Origin: Tubulanus polymorphus
Taxonomy: Eukaryota; Animalia; Nemertea
Length of the DNA: 64,000 nucleotides
NCBI RefSeq assembly: GCF_964204645.1
Contig: NC_134031.1
Coordinates: 8,494,001 to 8,558,000, forward strand
Direction of reading: 5' to 3'
Made by a program: the position numbers and the translations under genes. Each line of letters starts with the position of its first letter. The stretch's first letter is position 1. Of this stretch, positions 2,791-55,237 are shown in pieces. A model generated the notes under the pieces. It ran no database searches. It was not told where the DNA came from and worked only from the letters and a program-made list of their open reading frames with translations.

Positions 2791-3581
2791 AAATGAAACC
2801 ATTCCAGATATCATTATAATTAATTTGATATTCTCTTGATTTCTGTATATAAGGTGTAATACATTTACAATACTTTCACTCATTTTTTAGTTAAAATATA
2901 TGAAATAAATTGAATTAAAAGACATCGTCTAAATCTTTTTCTAAATTAACTTTTTTATTTTTTTATGATTATTTCCATTCAACTTCTTTAATTTCTTACT
3001 TAATTTCATATTTTCATTAATCAATTGATATTTTCATAATAAAAGTACAACGCAGCCAATATTAAACCCCAGCAACTAAACAATGTTTCAAATCACTTTT
3101 TCCAGTTGGAATGCTGAAACCATTCTCATTCATTTAATTAAGAAAAAAAACTAAAAGAATGATAAGTAATTTGAAATATCTTATTTTGAATATATAATCA
3201 TTTATAATCATCTTTAAAATATTAGACTTTTAAATGATTAAATCAAATAACAATTAGACTTACAGTCTAACAATTTAACAGTTATTCATTAACTAATTTC
3301 ACAATGTTTTAACTATTATACATTTGAAATTTTCCAATTACTCATTCAGCTTACTCTTATTTCAATATAGAATTATTATTCTTTCCATAATTGATATGTT
3401 TCATTTTCTGATAAGGCTTTGATTTATGTGATATCAAATATTTGCCGCCACAATGATAATACACTTTCCCATTAGGATTAAACTTTTTAAATTCATTATC
3501 TAAATCACATTGAATTCCAATATTTGATGAATTTTCATTATAGATGATTTATTCATTATCAAAATTAAAATAATATAATTG

Positions 3582-4040
3582 TCATTTTTCAATTCTTAAG
3601 TTTATTATATCATTGTAATCTTTAGAAAGTATTAAATCATCATTTCTTTCATTAAAAGGAGTTTCAAGAATACTTATTATGTTTTCATCTAAATTACCTT
3701 TACAATTTAAAAATGTATTGAATACTGTAGGATTTTTTAGGTTGTTTACATAACTTATATCAACCCGCCATCTTATTAGTTCAGTAATTAAACATGTTTC
3801 TTTTAATGATATTTGATTAATCACAGTAATACTATCGATTTTATATTGGCTTCCATACACTAAATTTGTTGCTGAGATATAATTTTTAATGTTAAATAAT
3901 GAAAATAAGTTATCAATTTCTTTGATTTCGATTTTGAATTTAGGTTCTTCTTCTTCTGTCTTCATTTTTATAACAAAACTTTTATTAAAACTCATACAAA
4001 TATAAATATTCAATGTTAAAATATGAATCATTTCAATCAC
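3582..4040 (-). pseudogene. Uncharacterised element ORF-X remnant
   Basis: NLFSLFNIKNYISATNLVYG...KGNLDENII...PFNER...LILSKDYND..NLRIEK matches the 19363-20280 ORF; stop where element C reads R, with homology continuing past it. Confidence 0.75.
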
Positions 4041-4297
4041 ACCTTACTCACACTTTTTATGTTTTAAAATCAAGAATGTAACACATATAAATATAAATAT
4101 TCAATGTTAAAATATGAATTATTTCACTCACACTTTACTCTTTACACTTTTTATATTTAAAATTGATATTTTCATCAAATCGTTAATCACTCGTTACTTT
4201 TTATTTTATTTCACTCACCACTCACACTTTACTCACACTTTTATTCGAAATCTATGATATTCATATAAATAATGTTCATTTATATGAAATTATTAGA

Positions 4298-4393
4298 AGT
4301 AATGGGGAAAGTGTTGTTTCATATCAGAGGTTGAAGGGGAGAGTGAGCTCGACCTTTCGACCTCTGGTATGAAACAACACTTTCCCCATTACT
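4298..4393. repeat. Terminal hairpin of element A
   Basis: AGTAATGGGGAAAGTGTTGTTTCATA ... TATGAAACAACACTTTCCCCATTACT, 26-bp perfect arms plus an imperfect inner stem. Confidence 0.95.
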
Positions 4394-5971
4394 TACGGCG
4401 AAAGTAGGCCTACTGGTACGTTTACGAAAAATGAAAAACATTTTCAGAAGGGCAACTTGATTTTTTGTGATGTTGTGGTCCAAAGTCTGTGGTTTAGGAT
4501 AGCGTGCCTACCAGATCAGATTCAGATTTTTTCCCTTAGATTTTCGATTAGTCAAGGACAACCTGAAAATTTGAGGGGGATCTATAGGCCCCTAAACCCC
4601 CGTCTCAATCCGCCCTTCCTCAATCCACAATTATAGTACTGTCTATCTGAAAGCACCTCTTTCTAGAATGTGAATCGTCAGGATGAGCCTCTACCTCACA
4701 ACGATTCGAAATGACTCAGGGGCGAGGCCAGGATTTTCTAAATGAGTGTGTGGGGGGTCCGTTAGGGGGTTGCCTAGGCCCCTCGCTAATATAATTTGAG
4801 AAAAACCGTTAATGCGTGAGTTTTCAAAAGGTTTTAAAAAGGGCCTGTATCCTTTTTCGTTTGAAGAATATTTTGGGGCCCAAATAAAGGGAAATTCCTA
4901 AATGTTTTCACGTGGTTCAAGCGGTATACTAGGGCTGTCCCTGGGATGGATCCAGCGTCAAAGGCAGAGGTATCCAGGCCTTGTTTCTAAACTTCGCTAC
5001 AATCTCGTCGTTCACATACACATTGATTTTCTAGACTACCTAGAATTGGCAAAACAGCTAATCGCCTCAACAATTTTTGTATTTTTCCAATTTTTTCAAT
5101 CGCAATTTGGATCTTTCTTCAGAAAACAATACTTCCGAAATGAGAGAGGATTAGAAATTTCAAGGAATTTTAGGGGAGGGTCCCGGATCCCCATCAGGCC
5201 CATACAGAGAATTCTTTTGGGGAGTTCTACATGGGGGGAGGATGGTACCAAAAAGGCACCTTAACAAAAGGCAAGATAGCGATTGATCAATTTGAAAGAT
5301 TTGTTCTCAGTTTAATTTTTCATTTTTATTGTCCAGTAGAAAATTTACAACATTCCAGAAAACAAGGTTAAATGGGCGAAAATTCATTTTTGTTGATAGG
5401 TGTGGTTTTGCTACACTGTTGGTTGTATGTTGTATGATAATATAACAATACATGTGAATGGAAATTTCTGCTCATTGGAACTGGTACCGGTCAAAAGAGG
5501 GTTAAAACTGCCGGTCGCCGAACAAGAATGAACGACAACACTGAACTTGAACCTTTGGTGACATTGACATTGAGAGACGACTTAAACGAAAACGCTTCAA
5601 CATCCGACATACGTGTATATTCAAGTTGTGAAGAAAGAGGCAATGTTTAGAAACAAAGAATAGAACATGTGTGTCGAGAGTCGTTGATTCATAAGGTAAG
5701 TTGTGTAAATGTAAAATGCGCTCGTGTGCGGGGGCCTTAAGACCTTGATACACGAATACGAAACTATAATCCAATCCAAGATCAAACATGAAAGACCAAA
5801 CATAAACTCCAGTAACAAACTCGGTTCATTACAAACATGATTACTACATGTATCGTGTATAGAAACTGCATCAACTTCCATTTTTGCAGAAACCTGATAC
5901 TTGAAAATCTAACGATCCGAGCCAATTAGTTTATGAAATGTGAATTTCAATCATGAATTCGTCTGTGTGAG

Positions 5972-7093
5972 ATGTGGGAGCAGAACGAATCAACCAGTTC
6001 AGCCGCGCAGACTACAGTGCAGTTACTGGCAGTCGACTGCTCGTACAGCACTGATGGATTCTTCATGGCTATCATTCGACTCACTGGTGGAACTCTAATA
6101 ACTTTAATGGGAATCATTTTCAATATTTTCAGTATAATAGTATTACGAAGGCAACCAGTGATTTCCGTATCCACCCAATTACTCATATACCTCGCGTACA
6201 CAGATATTGCATTTTTGTTATGTCGCGGTATTCGAGAACCGCTTCGGTATTGGGTCGGTTGGGCCGTCGAGGGTGACTTCATTTTTCGGCAAAAAGTCCA
6301 TCCGTATCCGCGATTCCGGCATATACCGGAAATCCTTTATGTCCAGCCGGATATATATCTGTCGATTGATTTTTTACGCTACGCAACGCACGTCTCACGG
6401 AACTGGTTGACTGTTTTAATCAGCGTTGAAAGGGCCGTATCGCTCGCGTTTCCATTTTTCGCCCGGGCTAAGATAACTAAACGCCGAGTTTTATACGCGC
6501 ATATCTTAACATCTATGATTGTGTCGTCTGTTTATTTACCGCATATTTACGGGTTATGTCATTATGCCGATTTCGTTGGTTATGATATGTGCACAGGTCG
6601 ACCTGTGAGAGGTATTTTACATACGTTTAATTTTTGGGATCGATGGAGATCGGTAAGTCGCACGTATTTGAGTCCGGCAATTAAAGAAGTGCTACCTTTC
6701 ACGATTATCGTAATTTTAAATGTCTACATCGTCGCAAAAGTCCGTCAAATTTCACGAAATCAGAAAAAAATGACGGCAAAAGAAAGTGAATTAGTAGATT
6801 CTATGAAGGCTATTCGTTTGACTGTAGCCGTTTCAGTAATATTTTTGGTATTTGAACTGCCCAGTTCGTTTCAAAGTTATCAAAAATTTATCAGACTTTT
6901 CGTCGATATACAGGGAGTTTCTTTTCACGGAACATCGAAAAATGTGCAGAGATTTTTCGCCGAATTGTTTCCGATCGCGGACTCGTCTGCGAATTTTGTC
7001 ATTTATTGTTTTGTGCACGATCGCTTTAGACACACGGCAAAACAACTGCTGAGTAGACGATGTACGTATAGGGGTGCCACACGTCCATATTGA
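5972..7093 (+). CDS. Rhodopsin-class GPCR, FMRFamide-receptor/peptide-receptor-like (invertebrate expanded type), single coding exon
   Basis: 373-aa intact ORF with 7 hydrophobic segments: TM1 GIIFN, TM2 LAYTD, TM3 SVERA, TM6 FLVFELP, TM7 SSANFVIYC, helix 8 RFRH. Confidence 0.9.
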   Translation: MWEQNESTSSAAQTTVQLLAVDCSYSTDGFFMAIIRLTGGTLITLMGIIFNIFSIIVLRRQPVISVSTQLLIYLAYTDIAFLLCRGIREPLRYWVGWAVEGDFIFRQKVHPYPRFRHIPEILYVQPDIYLSIDFLRYATHVSRNWLTVLISVERAVSLAFPFFARAKITKRRVLYAHILTSMIVSSVYLPHIYGLCHYADFVGYDMCTGRPVRGILHTFNFWDRWRSVSRTYLSPAIKEVLPFTIIVILNVYIVAKVRQISRNQKKMTAKESELVDSMKAIRLTVAVSVIFLVFELPSSFQSYQKFIRLFVDIQGVSFHGTSKNVQRFFAELFPIADSSANFVIYCFVHDRFRHTAKQLLSRRCTYRGATRPY

Positions 7094-8208: not shown

Positions 8209-9384
8209 CTATAACAATTAACAATACACTAAAATTAACATTTTACTTGGTTTTGCTCAATTAACTACTTTTAGATTATAAAACTTTGGTTTATTTCAAC
8301 AATGAGTATGGCCTGCAAATTTAAATTTCGGGGGGACAAAATATTCATTCATTCTAAAAATTGTATTACTAATGTTCCTAATTTTTGCTGGAATCTAACG
8401 GACTTGGTGATTTATGGTACAACAAAATTACACCGGGCCTGGAGCTTTTTACCGTAAGGGAGCGTCCAAAAACTATGTATCTCTGATTGGGGGAGGGGGG
8501 TTACTGAATTTTGGTACAAAGTGGTACATGGGGGAGGGGGGTCAGCAAAAAAGGAACGTACTTTGAGGGAAGAGGTATTAATCAATCTTGGAACGTACTT
8601 TATGCACCCAAACTCAAATGAAAATAGCCGATACTGGTGTTTAATCGGCTTTTAGTGACTTGTTCAAGCGACTTGTAGTAGACTTCAACTGGGAATTCCC
8701 CATACCAGGTACCGGTATCGATCTTACACGCCGCACTTGTTGGAACCAGGTATTTATATTTTTCATATTTTGTTTTGATTTGTGTTCTTTGCATCAATAT
8801 AATTGGGGGGGGGGGGTCATGGGTATCATGGTACGTACCTATGAGGGGTCAGTGAATTTGGTACAAAGGTGGTACAAGGGGGGTCAGAAAAACGAGAGAA
8901 CTTTTGTTAATTGATTCATACAAGTATATTCTATTCTCATTTTAACTGTGTTAATGTATGTAACTGCATGAATGCGTGTATCATGTATGAGTAATAGGGA
9001 TAATAGGCTTTCAGATCAAAGGTCGAAGGGTCGAGCTCGTAAAAAAATGAAAATAATAATAATTTACAGTTGAATTAGTCGCGCACACTCCTAATTCAAC
9101 TGTAAATTATTATTATTTTCATTTTTTACTCACTCGCCCCTTCAACCTTTAACCTGAAAGCCTATTATCCCTATTACTCTTAAAATAATCATATACATGA
9201 ATAACATTTAAATTGACAGATTATTCAATATAAAAGTATATATTTACAACATTATTTCAATATTCATATTTGTATGAGTTAGATTTTTAAACATTAAAAG
9301 TGTTAGTAAAGTGTGATTGAAATAATACATGATATAAATCATTGAACTTCTAAAATCAATTTAAAAAAAAAATTTGATATTAAA

Positions 9385-10182
9385 ATGGAAGCAAATAAGT
9401 ACTACTGTCCAACATGTAATATCAATATAGATAAATCCCAAAAAGCAAGACACAATAAAACTAAAACACATTTAGAGAATAAATTGAAACTAGAATATAA
9501 AGATGATATATTAGAAACTAAATTAGATGAATTAAAGAATGAAAAAGAAACATACAAATGTGATACATGTAATCAATCATTCAGTGATAAAAGATATTAT
9601 AATGAACATTTAAAATCTAAAAGTCATATTAGAAATATGAATGATGATATTTTAGGTGAAGATTATTTTGATAAAGATAATGATAAGAAACAGAAGACAA
9701 TTAAAAGCATAAAAAATAAATTAAACAATAAAAGACCATACATGGAAGATGTAAGAAATTATATTAATTCATTAGATAATAATAAAGATATAGAGATAAC
9801 CGAAGCATTTAAAAGTGATATTGGTCCAGCAGCTATCGAGTTTAAATTTCATAAAGGAAAAACATTAGAAGAAAATAAAAAACATTTAGAAAATATGAAA
9901 GAAATAATAAAAATAATAACTGATGTTGAATATCCTAAAATAAGTATTTCATCAAAAGTTAAATTCATAAAATCTGAAGATAAACCAATATACAATATAA
10001 ATTCTCATTCACAACATATTATTTCATAACAACATATAGATGATAAATTAGATAAATGTTATAATGAAGTAAAAACTAAAATAGAAGAGAAATATTTTGA
10101 AGGATCTGGTTTAATATTTGATGAAATAATATTTATGACTTTACATGTTTATAACACCAATAAGGGTAAAAAAATATTTTAA
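9385..10182 (+). pseudogene. N-terminal part of a Polinton-type protein-primed DNA polymerase B (two C2H2 zinc fingers plus terminal-protein-like region), truncated by internal deletion
   Basis: CPTC..H..H and CDTC..H..H fingers. Reading through the stop at 10027-10029 gives KIEEKYFEGSGLIFDEIIFMTLHVYN, resembling the conserved EGSGW..(I)..L.I motif of Polinton pPolB N-termini (recalled, not searched). Confidence 0.65.
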
Positions 10183-10252
10183 AGCGTAAGGTTTCAGCGA
10201 ACTCTAACTCTTTTTGAATTTTAACCTATTTTAATAAAAATTTGATATATAA

Positions 10253-11677
10253 ATGTGCTCAAGATTAATTAAAGTTCCCGTGAAAGACATGAGTAATAAA
10301 TATATAAATTCAATATTATATTATCTAACTGTTAACAATAATTTAGCAGATATTTCAGGAGTAAATATAAATAAGTATTATAAATCTGAAAATAATGAAT
10401 TAATTGAAACATCAGATATTTTTTGCGATAATATAATGCTATATAAAATCATGTTAGAAAAAGAAATTATAAAAGAAAATAGAACAACTTTTCTAAACGT
10501 TAATCAGAGAAAGATAACACATTATGAAATTAAAGAATGTTTTAATCAAGGAGATATTATATTGGATAACTTAGCTATAAAAATTACACGTGTTTTAACA
10601 ATTCATGATGATAATTCAAAATCATATATATTAAGTAGAATTAATCAAGAATTGAAATTAACAGATTATATTGCTGTATTTAAAATTTCATTATGCAATC
10701 AAAATTTAAATGAATTAATACAGAAAATGGATAATATTGAAAAATTATTTAATGAAAAAAATTACAATATATTAGATGTAGATGTGACACAAGATTTTAA
10801 AGGATCATTTAATTCAGATGAAATAAAATCAATGTTCGAAAATAGAAAATATAAAGTTCTAAAAGAATTTTCCAATATTTGTGTTTCAGCATTACATAAG
10901 GATGATAAAATAAAGATCTATAATAAAACAGCATGACAATTCAAATCTCCTGGTGTAAATATAAATTTCGGTTCAAATTTAATGAGTTACATAAATTGCT
11001 ATCAAGAGAGGTTAAAAGAATCATTTGAAAAATCAATTGAAACAGGATTGATTAGAATTGAAATAACTAGTATTTCATTTAAAAGAGGATTAAAAGTGAT
11101 GGAAAAAATAAAACAATACTTAAAGAAAGAAAATATTTACTATTCACCTGCATATTTACAACTTAAATCATTATTTGATGAGGTTCAACAGACTGTATGT
11201 ATTTATGACTTGATTGAAAAATGCTTTTATTTCTGTTATTATGGTGATTTATTAGCAAGGAAATTTATAGGATATAAATCTAGGATAAGTAAAAATATTG
11301 AAGAGTCCTCCTTTTTACTTATTTTATCAATGTTTACAATTAAGAATATCCCGTGTTTATACCTAACAATTAATCAAAATGATGATAAATCAGAATTCAT
11401 TATTGAAGCAAAAAAATATATTTAAACTGAAGGAGCAACTGTTATATCTTCAACTAATTCAATGTTTACAGTACTGAATAAATTTATATTTAGATTTAAA
11501 TTACGTGAAACAGGAATTAGTTTTACAACTTTAAAAAAGAGATACAATATAAAATCTAAACCTTTTTATAAATTAGATGCACTTGATATTGAAGAAGATT
11601 TTGATTTAAAATTATTATCTAAAAGTGAATTTAAAAAGTTAGAAGAAATGAAAGAACTTAAAAATAGGCGTTCATAG
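10253..11677 (+). pseudogene. Putative Rep_trans-like (rolling-circle initiator/nickase) protein, ~474 codons with two in-frame stops
   Basis: ORFs 10253, 10982 and 11462 share one frame. Motifs IILDNL, DVDVTQD, IKIYNK, LIRIEIT occur in Rep_trans order. The copy in element C has Cys where this copy has TGA. Confidence 0.55.
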
Positions 11678-12734
11678 CCCTGATAGACACTTTATTTTAT
11701 CAAAATTAGAAAAACCTATTTTCCAAGTAAAGAAAATAACACACAATCATTTTGAAATAATTGATAAAATGGATTTTGAATTGATGAAAAAATATACTGA
11801 ATAATTAAAGATAAATTCTAATGATTTTATAAATGTATGTGATATGCGTAAAGAATCTGATTATTTAAGAAAAATGAAACTTAACAATATGAAAATTAAG
11901 CAATGCGAGCGTTTAGAACTATTGAAAGATAATTCTGAATATAAAATTGAAAGATTTAAATAAAAAAACAATAAGTTAAATAAGTTAGTATTAGATAAAG
12001 TAACTTATTGTTTTTTTATTTAAATCTTTTTGATTTCTATTCACGCTATTGGTTAACAAGAATTGACTAGAATTCAAATAGATTTAACAAGAAATTCAAT
12101 AACTTTAACTGTTAGTATCACTCTTGTATTATTTCATTGAATTATTTCACTCGTTAATTACTCGTTACTTTTTATATTGAAAATAAGAATTTAACGCATA
12201 TAAATATAAATATTCAATGATTTAAATATGAATTATTTCAATCACACTTTACTAACACTTTTAATGTTTAAAAATCTAAATCATACCAAATATAAATATT
12301 GAAATATGTTTAAAATATATCTATATATCTATTTATAAGAGCTCGTTAATTACTCGTTACTTTTTTACTCACACTTTAATAACACTTTTATATTGAATAA
12401 TCTATCAATTTATATGTTATTCATGTAAATTATGTTTATATATATATATGAATATTTTAAGAGTAATAGGGGTGATGGGCTTTCAGGTTAAAGGTTGAAG
12501 GGGCGGGTGAGTAAAAAATGAAAATAATAAAAATTTTCAGTTGAATTAGGAGTGTGCGCGACTAATTCAACTGTAAATTATTATTATTTTCATTTTTACG
12601 AGCTCGACCCTTCGACCTTTGGTATGAAAGCCTATTATCCCTATTACTTGTATGAACCTGTTGCTTTTTGCTTTGTGCCAGTGTAAATTGTTTGTGGAAA
12701 CTAATTGTTACTGTAATTGTAATGTCGGCTAAAT

Positions 12735-14543: not shown

Positions 14544-14644
14544 ACATTTTTTTGCAGAAAGCTGATACTTGAAAATTTAACGATCCGAGCCAATTACAAT
14601 GGTTTATGATATGTAAAATTCAATCATGAATTCGTCTGTGTGAG

Positions 14645-15570
14645 ATGTGGGAGCAGAACGAATCAACCGGCACAGCCGCGCAGACTACAGTGCAGTTACT
14701 GGCAGTCGACTGCTCGTACAGCACTGATGGATTCTTCATGGCTATCATTCGACTCACTGGTGGAACTCTAATAACTTTAATGGGAATCATTTTCAATATT
14801 TTCAGTATAATAGTATTACGAAGGCAACCAGTGATTTCCGTATCCACCCAATGACTCATATACCTCGCGTATACGGATATCGCATTTTTGTTATGTCGCG
14901 GTATTCGAGAACCGCTTCGGTATTGGGTCGGTTGGGCCGTCAAGGGTGACTTCATCTTTCGGCAAAAAGTCAATCCGTATCCGCGATTCTGGCATATACC
15001 GGAAATCCTTTATGTCCAACCGGATCTTCATTTGTCGCTTAATTTTTTACGCTACGCGACGCACGTCTCACGGAACTGGTTGACTGTTTTAATCAGCGTT
15101 GAAAGGGCCGTATCGCTCGCGTTTCCTTTTCTCGTCCGAGCCAAAATAACTAAACGCCGAGTTTTATACGCGCATATCTTAACATCTATGATTGTGTCGT
15201 CTGTTTATTTACCGCATATTTACGGGTTATGTCATTATGCCGATTTCGTTGGTCATGATATGTGCACAGGTCGACCTGTGAGAGGTATTTTACATACGTT
15301 TAATTTTTGGGATCGATGGAGATCGGTAAATAGCACGTATTTGAATCCGGCGATTAAGGTAGTTCTACCTTTCACGATTATCGTAATTTTGAATGTCTAC
15401 ATCGTCGCTTAAATCCGCCAAATCTCAAGAAATCAGAAAAAAATGACGACAAAAAATTAATTCGTAGATTCTATGAATGCTATTCGTTTGACCGTCGCCA
15501 GTTCATTATATTTTTGTTATTTGAACTGCCCAGTTCGTTTCAAAGTTATCAAACATTTATCAGACTTTTC
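14645..15570 (+). pseudogene. Pseudogenised tandem duplicate of the 5972-7093 GPCR
   Basis: Highly similar from the upstream TTTTTGCAG (~14548). Stops at 14852-14854 and 15410-15412, a frameshift in TM6, and loss of homology after ~15570 (TM7 missing). Confidence 0.93.
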
Positions 15571-16946: not shown

Positions 16947-17776
16947 TTTAAATGAAATACTCGTTATTTCGATTCTAATTAAATCTGTTTCAATTGATTT
17001 TTCAAATGATTCTTTTACCTTTCTTGATAGAAATTTATGTAACTCATTAAATTTGTACCGAAATTTATATTTACACCAGGAGATTTGAATTGACATGCTG
17101 TTTTATTATAGGTTTTTATCTTATCATCCTTATGTAATGCTGAAACACAACTATTAGAAAATTCTTTTATAACTTTATATTTTCTATTTTCGAACATTGA
17201 TTTTATTTCATCCGAATTAAATGATCCTTTAAAATCTTGTGTAACATCTACATCTAATATATTGTAATTTTTTTCATTTAATAATTTTTCAATATTATCC
17301 ATTTTCTGTATTAATTCATTTAAATTCTGATTGCATAATGAGATTTTAAATACAGCAATATAATCTGTTAATTTTAATTCTTGATTAATTCTACTCAAGA
17401 TATATGATTTTGAATTATCATCATGAATTGTTAAAACATGTGTAATTTTTATAGCTAAGTTATCTAATGTAATATTTCCTTGATTAAAACATTCCTTAAT
17501 TTCATAATGTGTTATCTTTCTCTGATTAACGTTGAGAAAAGTTGTCCTATTTTCTTTAATAATTTCTTTTTCTAACATGATTTTATATAGCATTATATTA
17601 TCGCAAAATATATCTGACGTTTTATTTAATTCATTATTTTCAGATTTATTATACTTATTTATATTTACTCCTGAAATATCAGCTAAATTATCATTCACAG
17701 TTAAATAATATAATATTGAATTTATGTATTTATTATTCATCTCTTTCGCGGGAACTTTAATTAACTTTGAGCACAT
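16947..17776 (-). pseudogene. Second copy of the Rep_trans-like gene (frameshifted, 3'-truncated)
   Basis: Near-identical to 10253 onward; DVDVTQD, KTYNK, LIRIEIT retained. Confidence 0.55.
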
Positions 17777-17794
17777 TTATATATCAAATTTTTA

Positions 17795-18393
17795 TTAAAT
17801 TAAATTAAAAATTGAAAAAGAGTTAGAGTTCGCTGAAACCTTACGCTTTAAAATATCTGCTGATTCGATATTATCTGGTTTATTTATTGTAGGTTTGAAA
17901 TTAGAAAATGTTATTACGCCAGTAGAAATTAATATCATTATTCCGCCTAACAGGAATGAAGCGTATCCAACCCATTTTTGTAATTCTGTCATAACTAATA
18001 AATCTTTTTTTAAATCGCTATATAATTTATTTTCATCATCAATTGGTATTACTTGGTTACATAATTTAGAATAACATTTTATAATACCATCACTAATAGA
18101 GTCATTTATTCTTGCTAATCTAGCTTCTTCATATATTTTGAAATGTTTTATTACTTTATCTGGTTTCATATTATCTAATTCTTGAAAAGTAATAATTTTT
18201 CCATAAATTCCTTACATTTACCACTAGCAATTAGTAAATCAAGATGGTGCTTACATGTTAAATAGTATTCAAAATCAATATTATTATTATTTTCAGCACA
18301 ATTAGAAACAACTGTATCTTTATTATCTGTGATACCTAAATCTTCAATTGTCTTTTCAATATCAATATTATTTTTACTCGATTTCTTTGACAT
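17795..18393 (-). pseudogene. Uncharacterised element protein with a C-terminal hydrophobic (TM-like) segment, frameshifted
   Basis: ORFs 18175-18393 and 17795-18169 join through a frameshift (LIASGKCKEFM..ELDNMKPDKV..YEEARL..LYSDLKKD..FLLGGIMILISTGVIT); resembles uncharacterised proteins of invertebrate Polinton-like elements (recalled). Confidence 0.5.
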
Positions 18394-18694
18394 TTATATT
18401 AGAGAAAAAAGCGAAAAAAATATTATAAGTATTCTTCAAATGATACTAGCTAGTTAAATATAAAGAATTTTAAATACTAGCTATTTGAAGTTAAAGAATT
18501 TTTATTCGAATCTTATCAAAATCTATTTAATCTAGTTTTCATAAGAAAATATTAGATTTTGAAAAAAATTAAAATAGAAATAATGGCTAGTTAAAGATAT
18601 GTAATTTTTAATATTTTGTATTTGAATTAGGATTTAGAATATCTCACTACTTTTGTCTATCTATAGGAGCAGTTACTATAACTGTCCAGATAAG

Positions 18695-19417
18695 TCATTT
18701 CGGATCCTCGATAATAAATTCCTCCTCAACGTATCGTTCATTATTTGGATCATTGTTCCATAATTCAATAAATTTCTTTGCTTTATCTAATTGATCCAAA
18801 TATAATTTTATGTCAAGTTTATTTCCTTTCCTAATATTTTCCTTCTTTTCAAGAGGCCTTAAATTCTTCCAATTCCTTATTAATTTCTGGTTGTATTCAT
18901 CATTCATGTTAAATTTAGAAATCGGCAACACATGATCAATGTGGAAATATTCACCATAATTATTCATATTCATTTTTTCATTGAACTGATATATAATCCA
19001 GGATTTGAGAAATTCATATGAACAGCCTAATAAATTAGATAGTGTGGCTGAATGCGTTTCTTTATTGAATAATTTTGATAATCTATTACCTAGACATTGT
19101 TTCAATTTAAAATTAAGATCCGTTTTATATCTTTCTTTTCGATAATTCTTATCGTACACTTTAATATGTCCTCGATTTTTTTCTCTCCATCGTTAATCTT
19201 TTTCTTTACATTTTTCTGCATTAATTGCTCGATATTGTTTATTATTCTGTTTCCAACATGTTTTACAAATATTACGTAAACCATCTTTGTAAAACTTATG
19301 TTTATAATATTCTGCTAATGATTTATTTATTTTACACTTTGAACATTTTTCATTATATATATTTATAACACCAGTATTGTTTGTAATATTGATAGTTTGT
19401 GATTGTTCTGGCTCCAT
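18695..19417 (-). pseudogene. NCLDV-type HNH-like endonuclease with N-terminal CxxC..CxxC finger, frameshifted
   Basis: KCSKCKINKSLAEY..DGLRNICKTC, then LLGCSYEFL..MNNYG..FHIDHVLPISKF..NWKNLRPL..ENIRKGNK. Confidence 0.75.
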
Positions 19418-20280
19418 TTATAATACATATTTTTATTAAAATTTATTTCCATATTTCCATATTTTGAGTTATGATATTCTGATTTAAGATGGTGTGATTT
19501 ATTGCTTCGAGTATAATATTTTCCACAATTACATAAAACGCTTTCATTAGGATTATATTTAGGCGTAACAATTTCATTATCTAAGTTACATTGAATTCCA
19601 ACATCTTTATAAGACTTATTATTATCTAATTCACATTGAATTCCAATATTTGATGAATTTTCATTATAGATAATTTGTTTATTATCAAAATTTAAATAAT
19701 ATAATTGTCTTTTTTCAATTCTTAAGTTAGTCAAATCATTATAATCTTTTGAAAGTATCAAATCACTATCTCTTTCATTGAAAGGAGTTTGAAGTATATA
19801 TATTATGTTTTCATCTAAATTACCTTTATGATTTAAAACGGTATTACATATTTTAGGATTTTTGATTCCATTATCTATTAGTTTAATAATTAAATATGCT
19901 TCATTTGATAATATTTGATTGATTATAGAAATATTATCAATTTTATGTTTTCTTCCATACACTAAATTTGTTGCTGAGATATAATCTTTAATGTTAAATA
20001 ATGAAAATAAGTTATCATTATTCATATTTCTAATATGATTTTTAGATTTTAAATGTTCTTTATAATATCTTTTATCACTGAATGATTGATTACATGTATC
20101 ACATTTGTATGTTTCTTTTTCATTCTTTAATTCGTCTGATTTAGTTTCTAATATATCATCTTTATATTCTAACTTAAATTTGTTTTCTAAGTGTGTTTTA
20201 GTTTTATTATGTCTTGCTTTTTGAGATTTATCTATATTAGTTTTACATGTTGGACAGTAGTACTTCTTATTTGCTTCCAT
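19363..20280 (-). CDS. Chimeric ORF: pPolB N-terminal zinc fingers fused to ORF-X (C-terminal C2H2 finger)
   Basis: The first ~87 aa match the 9385 ORF; from DNLFSLF onward it matches 3582-4040; CNCGKYYTRSNKSHHLKSEYH near the end. Confidence 0.6.
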   Translation of the reverse strand: MEANKKYYCPTCKTNIDKSQKARHNKTKTHLENKFKLEYKDDILETKSDELKNEKETYKCDTCNQSFSDKRYYKEHLKSKNHIRNMNNDNLFSLFNIKDYISATNLVYGRKHKIDNISIINQILSNEAYLIIKLIDNGIKNPKICNTVLNHKGNLDENIIYILQTPFNERDSDLILSKDYNDLTNLRIEKRQLYYLNFDNKQIIYNENSSNIGIQCELDNNKSYKDVGIQCNLDNEIVTPKYNPNESVLCNCGKYYTRSNKSHHLKSEYHNSKYGNMEINFNKNMYYKWSQNNHKLSILQTILVL

Positions 20281-20478
20281 TTTGATATCAAATTTTTATT
20301 AAAATTGATTTTAGAAGTTATTCATATATAAAATATTCATTTATATATGTTATTCATTTATATATGTTATTCATTTATAAAAATATTAAAGTAATTGGTA
20401 ATGTGTTTGTTCAAGTCAAAGGTTGAGTCCAGTGAGTAGAAAAATAATATGGCTTGAACAAACACATTACCAATTACT

Positions 20479-20919
20479 CAGATTATGAAAGCAGAAACTT
20501 CAATGACAATGTTGAGTGGAAGCTGAATAGCCAGGTTTTTTCTGTGATAACCAAGATTTTTGGGTTTCCAGAAATAGATTTATTTGCATCAAGACATATC
20601 GCTCAGTTGGTAGATTATGTGTCTTGGAGGCCAGATCCCTATGCAAAATATATTGACGCATTATCGTTGTCATGGACTAATATGAAATTTTATATGTTTT
20701 CTCCTTTCAGCCTTATCTCTACATGTGTACAAAATCCAGAGGGACTGCTGTCAGGAAGGTATACTCGTTGTTCCCTGTTGGACTACCCAAGCCTGGTTTA
20801 CGCGGTTGAGAATTCTAATACAAAGACCATTAGTTCTACCAAGACTCGAACATTTATTAACTCTTCCCAATCAGGAGAAACTACACCCGTTGCGGGAAAA
20901 ACTACGTAGTTCTTTTGGG
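20479..20919 (+). pseudogene. DIRS pol C-terminus: RNase H end plus methyltransferase-like domain
   Basis: (A)DYESR, EWKL, IDLFAS, DALSLSW, YMFSPF (YxFPPF-like), ILVVPCWTTQAWF. Confidence 0.85.
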
Positions 20920-21926
20920 ATGCAGGGTTTCAGGAATGTCATGGAAACAACAAGAATTTCGCAGAGGACTACCGAAATCATGTGGGAATCGTGGAAATAC
21001 TCTAACTTGATTAACTTTTGTGACAAACGGTCGATTAATAGATTTTGTGTATCTATAGCAGAATTTTTGGATTTTCTGACGGAATTGTACGATGCAGGGC
21101 TTAGTCTTAGTGCTATTAATACTGCAAGGTCGGCAGTGTCAAAAGTAATTTCAGATGATTCTGATGCTGGTGTCTCGGTAGGGGCACATCCATTGGTGGT
21201 TCGTTTCATGAAGGGGGTGTACAATACAAAAACGCCTCAACCCCGATACAGTACAGTCAGGGATGTAAATATTGTTTTAGATTGGATACGTAGAGAGTTA
21301 CCTGATTCGTCGAGTTTATGTTTAAAACGTTTGACAATAAAAACTGTAGTTTTAATCAGTTTAGTGTTAACTGCTAGGAGGCAGTCTATAGGGCTTTTAG
21401 ATATAAAAATGTGTAAAACTTATTCAGAATACAGATTTCAATATAATGTTAATGATCTTAAGCAATCTAGACCAGGGTATAGGCCTCCGGATGCTATTAT
21501 CAAGAAATTCGAGGAGGACTGCAGGATTTGTCCGTATTTAGCATTGACAGAGTATATTTAAAAGTCTAGTGCCATTCGGGGTGATGTTACACATTTGTTT
21601 GTTGGGACGATAAAGCCTTATAGATCACTTAGTTTGGACACATAAGTAGGTGGATTAAGCAAGCACTGAAAGAAGCTGGTGTAGATACATCGGTCTTTAA
21701 GTCACATAGTCTTCGGGCGGCAGCAGCTTCCAAGGCAAATAGCAAAGATGTTCCTATTAATTATATACTGAATACTGGAGGTTGGGCGAAAGCTACGACA
21801 TTTGCTAGGTTTTATTGCAAACCAATTATAGACTCCAGTGCTGTGAAAGATTGGAAATCACATACTTGGTTAAAACATTGGAATTTGAATCAGAGTGGTG
21901 CAAGTAATAGATATACTGGATTCTGA
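20920..21926 (+). pseudogene. DIRS tyrosine recombinase (stop codon and frameshift)
   Basis: SAINTARSAVS, HPLVVRFMKG, TARRQS, KQSRPG, FKSHSLRAAAAS..GGW....FARFY. Confidence 0.92.
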
Positions 21927-41740: not shown

Positions 41741-44700
41741 ACGTTTAACTGTTCTGTATTTTTGTTCATAACATGATTATTTCTAAAAATCACAGATTGA
41801 TATCAAATACATGTAATTCTTCTTTAGATGATTGAAAGCGAAAATCACATCGAATGACCAATAAGACATACTATATAAAATATGAATAAGATGTAGAATG
41901 CAATGTAAACTTACTCGCATGACTTTCCTGAGTGGCAACTAGCTGTACAAATTACACCCCTCTTCTTACACAGACATCTTAAAGTCGAGCAATTTGCTTT
42001 GCAGTGGCATCGGCTAGCTGGTTTCAAAGAGTGTGACATTGCCATCGCAGCTGTTCTTATCGGCAATTTGGGAACTGATCCCCACCCAGCGACAGGAATA
42101 TCAAATTCCCCAACAAACCGTTGCAGCACATCTGCTCGCAAGGCAACATCTAAGACTCCGTACTTGGTTCTAAAAATGAGGATTAACAGAATAAAGAATA
42201 GAGCTGTTAAGACTTTGCTTTACGATTTATGAAATTATCTGACAAACCGTATTATATAAAAGTTTCCATTCTTAAACTTTTTCACTTGGACTACCACACC
42301 AGGGAGTCTACGTAGATCTATTTTGTGGCGGTCTTGCTCAGGAATTTTCACCGTTACAAAATCCCCAACTTTGAATATTAGTTGTTCTTTGTATCCCCTT
42401 TTCAACATCATTTTTGCGCCGTTTAAGGAGGCAAGGTTAGCAGCCATCCTAATTTTTTGGTGAGCTTCCTTAGTTGCTAGCTCATTAGCAACCTTAACTC
42501 TCTTTATTGGCAGCTCACTAAAATCAAATCCCTAGAATGGAAGTGGTGCATTGGTTAGCCAGCTTAAAATAAGGCCAAATGTAGTAAGTAGAGTTTAGGT
42601 TATAGCAAAGTGACAAGTTTTGTGCATTGTTAAAAAGGCTTACTTGCGAAGTGGTTGAGGCATTTGGTTCCATCTGAAAAAAGTTGAGTGATATACAGAT
42701 ATGAAAATTGGTAAACACTGCACTTGCAATAAATGTCAATTTTCTGACACTTGAAAAATTGTTAATTTTTTAAATATACATCTCTTAGAAATGCCACAAA
42801 GTTTACATTAATGAAATACTGTAAGTATCCCTTTATAAAATGCAAGTTGGCAGTTATCTTTTCTCAGGACAAGATTTCAATGAGCCTTATTCTGCAGGAG
42901 ACGAGATAGACATATTTGTATTTAAAATTAAATCGAATATATACACAAGATAATCAATCAAGCATGTACACACCGTAATATCTTCATCACTCTGAATTGT
43001 TATGGCCTATGAAAAAGAATATGGATTACTGATACTTGTTAAGTATTATAAAAAAAACATGCATTAAGATAATATCTACAGCCTGGCTCTGTTTACAAGA
43101 TGTTGATTAATTTTGAAAGGTATTTTGACTTTGTGATACTACTGTATTTGAAACTTAATTTCTTACTACACCCTACAGGGCCATAGGAACGAATTGTGGC
43201 CCATAATGACGGCGTAGCAGGCACAAAGCACTAAATGGTCATAAAATTTTGAAAAATTATATCATTTAGGTACATTCTGAGTACTTCCTGGTTGAAATTA
43301 GGAATGATATAAGCTCACAGTTTCACCATTTCTGCCACTAGGTACTATGGAGACCTACCCTAGGCATGTAGGAAGTCATAGGCAAGAGTCAGAAAATGGG
43401 GGGGGGGGGGCATGGCTCCCCGGTTCCTACAGCCCTGCCCTAAAATAGATTTTAGTGAGTATTAGTACATACTTCTGCATTGCCCTCCTCTTCGTCATTA
43501 TGTTCATTTGACTATAATCAAATACAATTTCTTATAAGGACTGAATAATGATATAAATACCATTTGCTGAAGTAACTACAAATTTTACCTGAAGTGCAAT
43601 ATTTGGGGGTTTTTACCCATACACACATTCATAGGGGGTACATTTTATTCGTGTGGAATACGTAGTGTTGATCATATCTAAAGAAGCAAAAAACATTGAG
43701 CATATAGGGGAAGCATATTATGAATTAATCAAGATATCGTGTTCAATTTTACTTACACATAATTCGTGGTAAATAATGATGCCATGGAAATTCTCCTTTA
43801 CCAGTGAAAGACGCTTTGAATGAGGCAATTTTATCAGCCACGATACGATGACCCCGTTCTACTAAGCCCTGGCTCTGGGGATGACGAGGTCTACCATGGA
43901 CAATTTTACAGCTGGAGGGCCATTCAGACAGAAGATCACCCAGTTCCCGGTCAGAAAATTCACCTCCATTATCACATTGAAGAATTTTGGGCAGCCCAGT
44001 AAAACTGAATAGGATCCTGAGAGCATCTTTCACATCAGTCGCAAATTTCCCCTTCAAGGGCCACAGAAAATGAAATTTGGAGGCATGGTCAATAGCATGC
44101 AATATGAAGCGATAACCTTCTGTTTCTTGACGTTGCATATCAATCAAGTCAACCTGAAATGAATATACATGTATGAATTAACGATAATAGTACTCAGACC
44201 TTAAATAAAAGTTATGTCTTACCTGAATTCTTTCGAATACATTTTGGCTAATGATCGGAATGACTGGGGCTCTGCCAGTTTGCGATGATTTCAGTGTGCA
44301 CACTTTGCATTTTTTCAAGGTATTCCTTACATGAATTCGAATGACACCGAAGTAGTTTTCTTGAACCTGAAAGTTGATCTTTTGAATAAGTGATTAAAGA
44401 TATGATTAACTAAAACCTCAGGGAATAATTTTACCTTTTTAAATGTAGCATTCTCTCCACCATGCCCAATAGCCTCGTGACAGGATAATATGATTTGATC
44501 AAAATCTTCCAAAGGGATAACTCTGAGTTTCCTTGAAACCTGAAACAACCCATTTGGAGCAAATGAATAACTTCTGTACATACTGCAATAAAATGATATT
44601 TTCCATGTAAGATACGTACATCACTTTTGCATGGTGCAACTACATTCTTATCACCGTTTTCCTCCTCTTTTAAAGTAAAACCTTTGGTTTTGACCTGCAA

Positions 44701-54151: not shown

Positions 54152-54281
54152 GGATCTGTATCCTAATAACTGTCGCTGATTGGCCGATAAACGCCCGCCA
54201 TTCAAGGAAAGTGTGGAGAATATAGTTAGAGAACAATAGAGTGGATCAAGCGAGACTCGAACCTGGGCCAGTAAATAACTA

Positions 54282-54823
54282 ATGTCTATTTATTAATGGA
54301 TGAGACCTGTTTTTCTGGGATATTTTGCTTACTTTTTGGGATACATACCTCATTTATGTCTTAACAGAATGCCAAAAGTCGCGGACAACAACTGAATATC
54401 CGATATATTTCCAGTTCTGTACAAATTAGATGGATTGGCAAAAAGACTCCTTAAGTCCAGTTGAATGAGAGAGAAAATCCTCCATTTTGTGAAATTTCTT
54501 GAATTTTTACATTGTCACCATGCCTACAAAATGAAGTTATTTTTCTTGTGGGGTTTCAACAACTTAATCAGGGTGGCGTAGGCATGGTAACAATGTTCAA
54601 ATCTAAGAAATTTCACAAAATGGAGGATTTTCTCTCTCATTCAACTGGACTTAAGGAGTCTTTTTGCCAATCCATGTAATCGGTACAGAACTGGAATAAT
54701 ATCGGATATTCAGTTGTTGTCCGCGATTTTTGGCATTCTGTTAAGACATAAATGAGGTATGTACTCCAAAAAGTAAGCAAAATATCCCAGAAAAACAGGT
54801 CTCATCCATTAATAAATAGACAT
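54282..54823. mobile_element. Near-perfect palindromic MITE (~250-bp arms)
   Basis: TA-ATGTCTATTTATTAATGGATGAGACCTG... and its inverse ending GACAT-TA; interrupts a SINE-like fragment. Confidence 0.9.
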
Positions 54824-55237
54824 TAGCACAGCATCATACCACTGAGCTCACTGACAGTCAGCCGAATGTTTTGACTAGCCTGACCGTACGAATAATTCCA
54901 CAGTAATCCGTACGGGTGCGTACGAATAGCCTACGGAATTATTCATACAGGTACGAATAGCCTACGGAATTATTCGTACGTGTCTGTACGAATAGCCACT
55001 TGGTTTACTAAAATAATGCTGCATTATTGGCAAAATATCCACTTCCATTCTTTAAAGCCTTCAAAATGGGCTTTATATATACTTACGACATCTACTATTG
55101 AAAAGCTCCATTGAATTCTGGCTTTCTGCGGACTTTTTAGAGAACACTACTACAGTTTGAAATGTTCTGCTTCACACTTAACCGATTGAATAACGCTGTT
55201 CATATAACAAGACTGCCCATAATTAGCAAGACCACGA

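Follow-up and report, generated by a model that had tools for sequence, protein, structure and literature searches.

Do the hairpin-forming ends of a Polinton element and the nickase-like gene that it carries belong to one replication system? The question is raised by an element of the nemertean Tubulanus polymorphus at positions 8990-12648 (copy 1) of a 64,000-nucleotide stretch of contig NC_134031.1 (positions 8,494,001 to 8,558,000; hereafter the window, in whose numbering all coordinates are given). An earlier note on this DNA had proposed that a Rep_trans-like nickase encoded in the element nicks and resolves its hairpins. Two further copies of the family, copy 2 (16947-20478) and copy 3 (3495-4393), lie on the minus strand of the same window. 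We favour, with roughly even confidence, the reading that copy 1 is a deleted hairpin-ended Polinton carrying an accessory, once-functional Rep_trans-like replication module of one sub-lineage, and that this module is not the hairpins' own enzyme. Judged from predicted structure, the nickase-like proteins are likely to form a new eukaryotic family of Rep_trans-like initiators, and a tight hairpin-nickase pairing has a weaker claim than this family identification.

A deleted Polinton with long terminal repeats

Copy 1 is flanked by a 6-bp target-site duplication (TSD), TGTATG, at 8984-8989 and 12649-12654, a match with a chance probability of 4.7e-4 given the local composition. Its termini read AGTAAT..ATTACT; the end motif of vertebrate Mavericks is (AGT)2 in PMC8097293, and AGTAAT differs from it by one base. 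The terminal inverted repeats (TIRs) are about 360-440 bp long (left, 8990-9346, plus strand; right, 12213-12648, minus strand). They align in an outer block (8990-9237 with 12384-12648; 88% over 267 columns, with indels) and an inner block (9238-9346 with 12213-12320; 92% over 110 columns), with further indels between the blocks. Copy 1 is not contamination, because a separate genomic read run with the same species label spans the whole element.

An open reading frame (ORF1, 9385-10182, plus strand) holds the first 265 codons of a protein-primed DNA polymerase B (pPolB-N), with an in-frame stop at 10027-10029; the remainder of the polymerase is deleted. ORF1 is 67% identical to the first 267 residues of P0177 (1,365 aa), and all three of its longer matches are proteins of 1,319-1,365 aa. 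The Pfam scan of these long relatives gave no DNA_pol_B_2 match; by eye they carry family B exonuclease and polymerase motifs. Since ORF1 is the N-terminal part of a 1,365-aa protein-primed polymerase, copy 1 is a deleted Polinton/Maverick, and a dead one. The TSD, the AG..CT termini, the long TIRs and the match to P0177 thus bear out the Polinton origin and the pPolB-N ORF that had been read from the sequence earlier. In addition, 413 reads depart from the window sequence at 10157, near the end of the polymerase match, as expected if most copies continue into the polymerase.

According to bioRxiv 10.1101/2024.03.18.585575, the domain order of pPolB is zinc fingers followed by a terminal-protein region, and ORF1 appears to retain two zinc fingers and the region that is terminal protein in Polintons. 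One ORF1 relative, P0175 (256 aa, on a 16.9-kb contig), stops exactly at the end of the terminal-protein region; either its gene is broken or it is a terminal protein made on its own, of the kind reported from a coral Polinton. The scan of viral contigs with pPolB-side queries gave no relative. The three deleted window copies contain no retroviral-type integrase, and no capsid, ATPase or protease gene was seen in them, in keeping with the earlier statement that integrase, capsid and polymerase core are missing from these deleted copies. That no integrase or capsid gene was linked to the family counts against the reading favoured here.

Terminal fold-backs are conserved in the family

Each TIR of copy 1 opens with a fold-back palindrome of about the 190 bp announced by the earlier note: 189 bp at the left end (8990-9178, plus strand; -70.6 kcal/mol, z -19.0) and 187 bp at the right end (12462-12648, minus strand; -60.3 kcal/mol, z -15.0), with the orientation of the right one matching that of the left. 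For neither fold-back was equal stability reached by any of 200 shuffles. The left fold-back consists of a perfect 24-bp outer stem, a mismatched G+C-rich middle, an A+T-rich inner stem and a 12-nt loop. Copies 2 and 3 have shorter hairpin ends, of 89 bp (20390-20478, z -7.5) and 96 bp (4298-4393, z -12.5), respectively.

Compared across three different ends, the 24 positions of the outer stem show 7, 10 and 5 differences. Measured against the left end of copy 1, every change is compensated on the opposite arm (7/7, 10/10 and 5/5); against its right end, which has three decayed pairs, 6/7 and 8/10 are compensated. The hairpin ends are real and conserved, their outer stems differing among three sub-families while remaining paired. 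Such compensated changes can come from selection or from one arm being copied off the other; whichever way they arose, the fold-back belongs to the family's biology.

The fold-backs might have a dedicated enzyme. An excised element would then self-prime at its 3' hairpin, and a trans-acting nickase supplied by a few helper copies would cut one palindrome arm and regenerate the ends; the cut, if asymmetric, would preserve a single end orientation, and the conserved mismatched middle would mark the arm. We consider this mechanism unlikely overall, although with a substantial residual chance. The compensation of outer-stem changes on the other arm and the preserved arm asymmetry speak for it, but compensated changes can also arise by copying arm from arm.

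The orientation of the ends bears on the same issue. In all four window ends (4/4) the mismatched middle has the same polarity, so that one orientation is seen throughout. Resolution of the adeno-associated virus (AAV) type produces two end orientations (flip/flop), whereas faithful protein-primed copying predicts one; the window ends therefore argue against flip/flop resolution, as weak evidence from four ends (p 0.125, two-sided). Minute virus of mice, however, reportedly receives an asymmetric cut at its left end, which keeps a single orientation. Loose ends of reads fall at the outer ends of copy 1 (862 and 1,028 reads), and among the six positions listed, the smallest with 380 reads, none is at 9178 or 12462.

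The nickase-like gene belongs to a large protein family

The predicted tyrosine nickase gene of copy 1, Rep_trans-like with a TBP fold, occupies 10253-11677 on the plus strand and is broken by in-frame stops at 10934-10936 and 11423-11425; its frame holds D59, D177, D181, Y223, R268 and E270. A second remnant in another frame (11679-11948, plus strand) matches residues 563-640 of P0009 (716 aa) at 31% (E 2e-7), and about 105 residues are missing between the two pieces by comparison with P0009. The remnant stops at an internal A+T-rich palindrome (11936-12043, z -8.4). The frame of about 474 codons described earlier is thus present, but because of this further piece it is not the whole gene; with its two stops it is the remnant of a protein of at least 716 residues.

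A word-indexed search found five relatives at 27-54%, and among 1.84 billion a seven-sequence profile matched 552 clusters at E <=0.001; many of these are 800-950 aa long, and the contigs of the 15 that were looked up measure 2-9 kb. We aligned 142 sequences (the two window copies, six close relatives and 134 from the best 150 matches, short fragments excluded), which share about 20-25% identity. Among rows with a residue at the position, D59, K144, D177, T179, D181, K221, Y223, K225, G240, G265, R268 and E270 are 97-100% conserved: R268 at 97%, D59 at 98%, and D177, D181, K221, Y223, K225 and E270 at 99%. Sequence comparison with the PDB gave one chance match and otherwise none, and the ESM Atlas gave weak THUMP matches only for P0002 and nothing usable for P0015. 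Upstream of the gene lies a 7-base likeness to the nick site of the pT181 family, too short to count.

The predicted fold resembles that of Rep_trans initiators

The AlphaFold2 model of the nickase-like protein, built from the 142 sequences, has a pLDDT of 94.4 and a pTM of 0.92, and places each conserved residue on a beta strand; the sheet has two lobes, and four of its strands carry these residues. Foldseek matched the model to TBP (1ais, prob 0.99) and to RepDE (4cwc, prob 0.94, E 2.8e-3, rank 4), and further to 4cwe (prob 0.84) and 4cij (prob 0.77); among viral proteins, inovirus G2P (prob 0.99, E 7e-5) ranked third, amid viral TBP-like proteins. In VIA-align, residues 51-297 were matched to TBP chains (Z about 8), with 140-155 residues aligned at a root-mean-square deviation of 3.5-5. 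Its rows at Z 8-9 include TBP chains, which match over both lobes (about 150 residues), and a phosphoglucomutase domain, which matches one lobe (82 residues). There is no HUH family match for the protein, and the predicted fold is TBP-like.

In RepD of pC221 the matching motif order is D43, D139, D143, R186, Y188, K190, R209 and E211; PMC13107129 numbers the catalytic residues D46, D142, Y191 and E214. On the strength of the model, the nickase-like family has the TBP-like fold of the Rep_trans type together with the D/D/Y/E catalytic pattern. With this fold and motif order but no library match, the protein is predicted to work like a Rep_trans initiator while standing outside PF02486. The Rep_trans-like character claimed for the gene is thus upheld in predicted fold and active-site pattern, and fails in sequence, where neither PF02486 nor RepD is matched.

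The full-length relative L007 extends the picture to the C-terminus, where the model of its last 293 residues (pLDDT 93) shows two beta barrels and a long helix. These gave weak but consistent OB-fold matches, the best Foldseek rows being POT1, HIN, RPA and PrgE, and VIA Z of up to 4.5 to OB-type chains. Residues 300-450 were barely covered by the fold searches.

Several points weigh against the assignment to a Rep_trans-type nickase. Foldseek ranks an unrelated enzyme first (prob 0.41), both it and VIA-align are headed by folds that are not related, and a VIA Z of 8 is middling. The TM-score is low (0.27 by target for 4cwc), and RepDE is absent from the 50 best VIA-align rows in both runs. 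No sequence link to RepD was detected by hhalign (probability 1.0%), the hidden Markov model score to RepD was matched by 19 of 1,957 reported shuffles, and Pfam, PHROGs and NCBIfam hold no family for these proteins. The residue correspondence to RepD is by motif order and strand position rather than by superposition, and the position of RepD R137 is mostly D in the nickase-like family.

The protein could alternatively bind DNA through its TBP fold, or be a different enzyme, its conserved residues only looking like those of Rep_trans. That TBP chains outrank RepDE in VIA-align, that the leading viral matches include TBP-like proteins and that a sequence-level link to RepD is missing would fit such a protein. 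We nevertheless regard it as very improbable, given a near-invariant acidic triad, K-x-Y-N-K and R-x-E in RepD order across the 142 sequences. Moreover, Rep-Arvir gave similar matches, with TBP first and no sequence link, yet is a nickase-type initiator by mutagenesis (PMC13107129).

Most hairpin ends travel without the nickase-like gene

Read depth was taken from raw genomic reads of the same species at 85% likeness, in bins of our own choosing. Against 11.7 for the right flank, the mean depth in copy 1 was 35.8 over the nickase-like gene, 819 over pPolB-N and 1,254 at the left end; in copy 2 it was 41.5 over the nickase-like gene, 469 over a small ORF, 518 over an HNH-like gene and 1,172 over the zinc fingers. 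Depth over the nickase-like gene is about threefold that of the flank, and the other sampled parts of the family outnumber the gene by a factor of 11-35. Most hairpin ends in the genome travel without it. Its rarity among the element's relatives makes the gene a likely addition rather than the enzyme on which the fold-backs rely.

The view of gene and hairpins as one system loses ground here: depths of 36-42 stand against 470-520, 820 and 1,250, all window ends share one orientation and the terminal-protein region is kept. Hairpin-ended relatives without the gene, which the earlier note had named as evidence that would count against its proposal, appear from the reads to be the majority of copies.

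Between copies 1 and 2 the nickase-like gene could be compared over 252 codons (synonymous divergence dS 0.18, dN/dS 0.15, p 4e-8) and pPolB-N over 82 codons (dS 0.24, dN/dS 0.15). A dN/dS of 0.15 implies that the gene was functional while the two lineages diverged. Selection on the gene in two elements favours a dedicated hairpin-resolving enzyme, but the terminal-protein region has been retained under the same selection, and with the rarity of the gene this speaks against one.

Three considerations tell against regarding the gene as an add-on. The 85% cut-off misses diverged gene copies, and amplified deletion derivatives need not mirror the gene set of the active element. Furthermore, equal dS and dN/dS for the gene and pPolB-N in differently hairpinned elements fits a long co-inheritance, which suits hairpin resolution as well.

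A further explanation makes the gene a selfish passenger, either a mobile nickase or a small replicon's core, which entered the Polinton by recombination and spread among its copies to its own benefit, like the HNH gene of copy 2, without any role in Polinton replication. Its low copy number agrees with this, as do the different upstream neighbours of the gene in copies 1 and 2 (at 10174 and 17856), the presence of an HNH-like gene in the same family, the relatives on short contigs with few other genes and the frequency of gene exchange in these viruses. However, any two copies always share some boundary, neither a terminal structure nor a TSD was found around the module, and the divergence of the gene equals that of pPolB-N; we rate a mere passenger as improbable. 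A fixed 5' boundary of a mobile nickase module is unproven: the one apparent third junction (9 reads, 2 starts) is put down to a chance likeness. It resembles the DNA upstream in copy 1, was equalled by 34/1,000 shuffles and probably consists of misaligned copy 1 reads. We keep to an accessory replication module of one sub-lineage.

Relatives of the gene on small contigs

Pattern scans, which are of limited sensitivity, yielded 17 loci from 287 pattern matches in metagenomes, and in 185,579 prokaryote genomes one locus from 196 pattern matches, on a 1.4-kb contig of an assembled genome. The viral-contig scans gave no relative of the nickase-like family, and the phage and plasmid records gave no match to P0015. 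One locus, L017, holds a decayed nickase-like copy whose surroundings, with immunoglobulin-domain and LINE-endonuclease sequences, are animal-like.

None of the 18 related loci carries pPolB or the genes of copy 2 (a weak match, E 0.004, falls on the nickase ORF itself), and none shows circular overlap; Rfam gave no match in six of them. In L010 (9,506 bp) TIRs of about 1 kb reach both contig ends, and the contigs L011 (1-5661) and L012 (1-4782) end in palindromes. The remaining 15 loci, of 1.2-4.7 kb, show no TIR or palindromic ends; they say little, because most of them are probably fragments. We regard L010-L012 as candidate free linear replicons. Polymerase, integrase and capsid genes were not recognised in these three contigs. 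What they hold is the nickase-like gene, a convergent ORF of 145 aa that is conserved, and several copies of a 250-bp repeat. Tandem repeats lie upstream of the nickase-like gene at L004:1-550 and L019:200-490, and are possibly origin repeats.

The absence of pPolB from all 18 loci, the TIRs of L010 and the palindromes of L011 and L012 suggest that the module arose elsewhere, likely in a distinct group of eukaryotic replicons of small size. The occurrence of distant homologues on contigs with palindromic ends would also suit an enzyme that resolves hairpins, but L010-L012 represent a single lineage (22-24% identity), and a palindrome at a contig end may be an artefact of assembly or amplification.

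Relation to known systems

With Polintons/Mavericks the element shares the 6-bp TSD, long TIRs, AG..CT ends and a pPolB with an N-terminal terminal-protein region; it differs in TIRs that open with fold-backs of 89-189 bp and in the Rep_trans-like gene of some copies. A vertebrate Maverick survey (PMC8097293) makes no mention of a hairpin or palindrome. Hairpin ends as such have a precedent: the 2026 preprint bioRxiv 10.64898/2026.07.28.741278 describes TIR palindromes next to TSDs in endogenous virophages and Polinton-like virus (PLV) subtype 4 of Halocafeteria seosinensis, proposes hairpin-primed replication, and does not mention a nickase. These protist viruses, as described there, pair palindromes (52 nt in subtype 5) with replicases other than pPolB, a pairing that favours dedicated hairpin resolution, whereas the window element keeps pPolB. 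Replicase swapping occurs in these viruses, one group of which has circovirus-Rep-like nickases (bioRxiv 10.64898/2026.10.13.758929 and PMC11296320).

Compared with Rep_trans proteins (PF02486: pT181/pC221 RepC/RepD, inovirus gII, MOBT), the nickase-like family has the predicted two-lobed TBP-like fold, the D/D/Y/E order and the IYNK motif in common, and differs in a length of about 800-950 aa, an added middle domain, OB-like C-terminal barrels and an animal genome as its setting. Archaeal Rep-Arvir (DUF7845; PMC13107129) is likewise a TBP-fold initiator tied to Rep_trans by structure only, with a tyrosine and three acidic residues; it has a KHYYM motif and a winged-helix domain where the present family has KxYNK, OB-like domains and other hosts. 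Replitrons, Helitrons and the Gulliviroviridae with their circovirus-Rep-like nickases are comparable in that a nickase of the rolling-circle type goes with hairpins or palindromes at the termini of a mobile element of eukaryotes; their enzymes are HUH proteins of another fold (PMC10288648 for Replitrons and Helitrons), and Replitrons mostly lack TSDs.

Parvoviruses replicate by a rolling-hairpin mechanism with imperfect terminal hairpins of fixed asymmetry, an HUH nickase-helicase and a single-stranded DNA genome, and have no integrase. The window ends are also imperfect hairpins with fixed asymmetry, but they occur in one orientation and come with no HUH match.

Two papers of 2026, PMC13107129 and PMC13595969, place TBP-fold rolling-circle initiators in bacteria and archaea only. 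Our literature search, with subscription journals, Repbase and preprint supplements outside its range, found no Rep_trans-like gene in a Polinton or any other eukaryotic element. The novelty claimed earlier is reduced on one side, hairpin-ended Polinton-like viruses having already been reported, and persists on the other, a described Rep_trans-like gene in a eukaryotic element not having been found.

Other family copies and neighbouring features

Copy 2 is a truncated family member that carries, besides its hairpin end, a zinc-finger ORF (19363-20280), an HNH/endonuclease VII-like gene split over two frames (18695-19417), small ORFs (18175-18393 and 17795-18211) and the 5' part of the nickase-like gene (16985-17776, 94% to copy 1). 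In 19363-20280 the polymerase's first 93 residues, the zinc fingers, are followed by another C-terminal region that has no family match, and a piece of this region recurs in copy 3 (3582-4043). Reads of the HNH-like gene are about 12 times more abundant than those of the nickase-like gene. Copy 3 is a remnant with an ORF piece 82% like the zinc-finger ORF of copy 2; a nickase-like gene was not seen in it. For copies 2 and 3 neither a partner end nor a TSD was found.

ORF pieces at 20448-21561 adjoin the end of copy 2 and have no Pfam match; they resemble the methylase-like and tyrosine-recombinase parts of DIRS-type retroelements. An rve integrase fragment (43749-44177, Pfam E 3e-9) lies 31 kb from copy 1 with no Polinton link, and its motifs look Ginger/KRBA2-like. 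An intronless Srw-type G-protein-coupled receptor gene (5957-7093) has a 97% identical partial duplicate across the element (14602-15412); together with remains of retroelements, this gene points to an animal host. At 1031-2800, inverted repeats flank long (TA)n tracts, and the A+T-rich DNA between them shares sub-terminal Polinton motifs (1617-1747 is 72% like 11952-12082). The window further holds a 548-bp fold-back at 54279-54826 with 249-nt arms (95% complementary) and a protein-kinase-like ORF piece at 327-1016 whose Pfam score is under the cut-off.

Proposed role of the module and its meaning

In our proposal, a retroviral-type integrase supplied in trans would insert family members, leaving the 6-bp TSD, and terminal-protein priming would copy the ends faithfully and so keep every end in one orientation. 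The hairpins would act as end-recognition or back-up priming structures. Where the module is present, Y223 would nick an origin on the element, remain on the 5' end and release a 3'-OH for strand-displacement synthesis, while the C-terminal OB-like domains would hold the displaced strand.

A bolder picture, which we put forward tentatively and think doubtful, is that a eukaryotic branch of TBP-fold initiators, fused to single-stranded-DNA-binding domains, runs undescribed small linear hairpin-ended replicons, and that some Polintons adopted it for hairpin resolution without an HUH enzyme. The small TIR- or palindrome-ended contigs with a nickase-like gene may represent a new replicon class, and the nickase-like family offers an enzyme candidate for how the palindromic ends of Polinton-like viruses replicate. 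With this fold and active-site pattern, a family of 552 clusters, present in an animal Polinton and almost absent from prokaryote genomes, would fill the third domain of life for TBP-fold initiators, a point that, taken by itself, we think quite probable.

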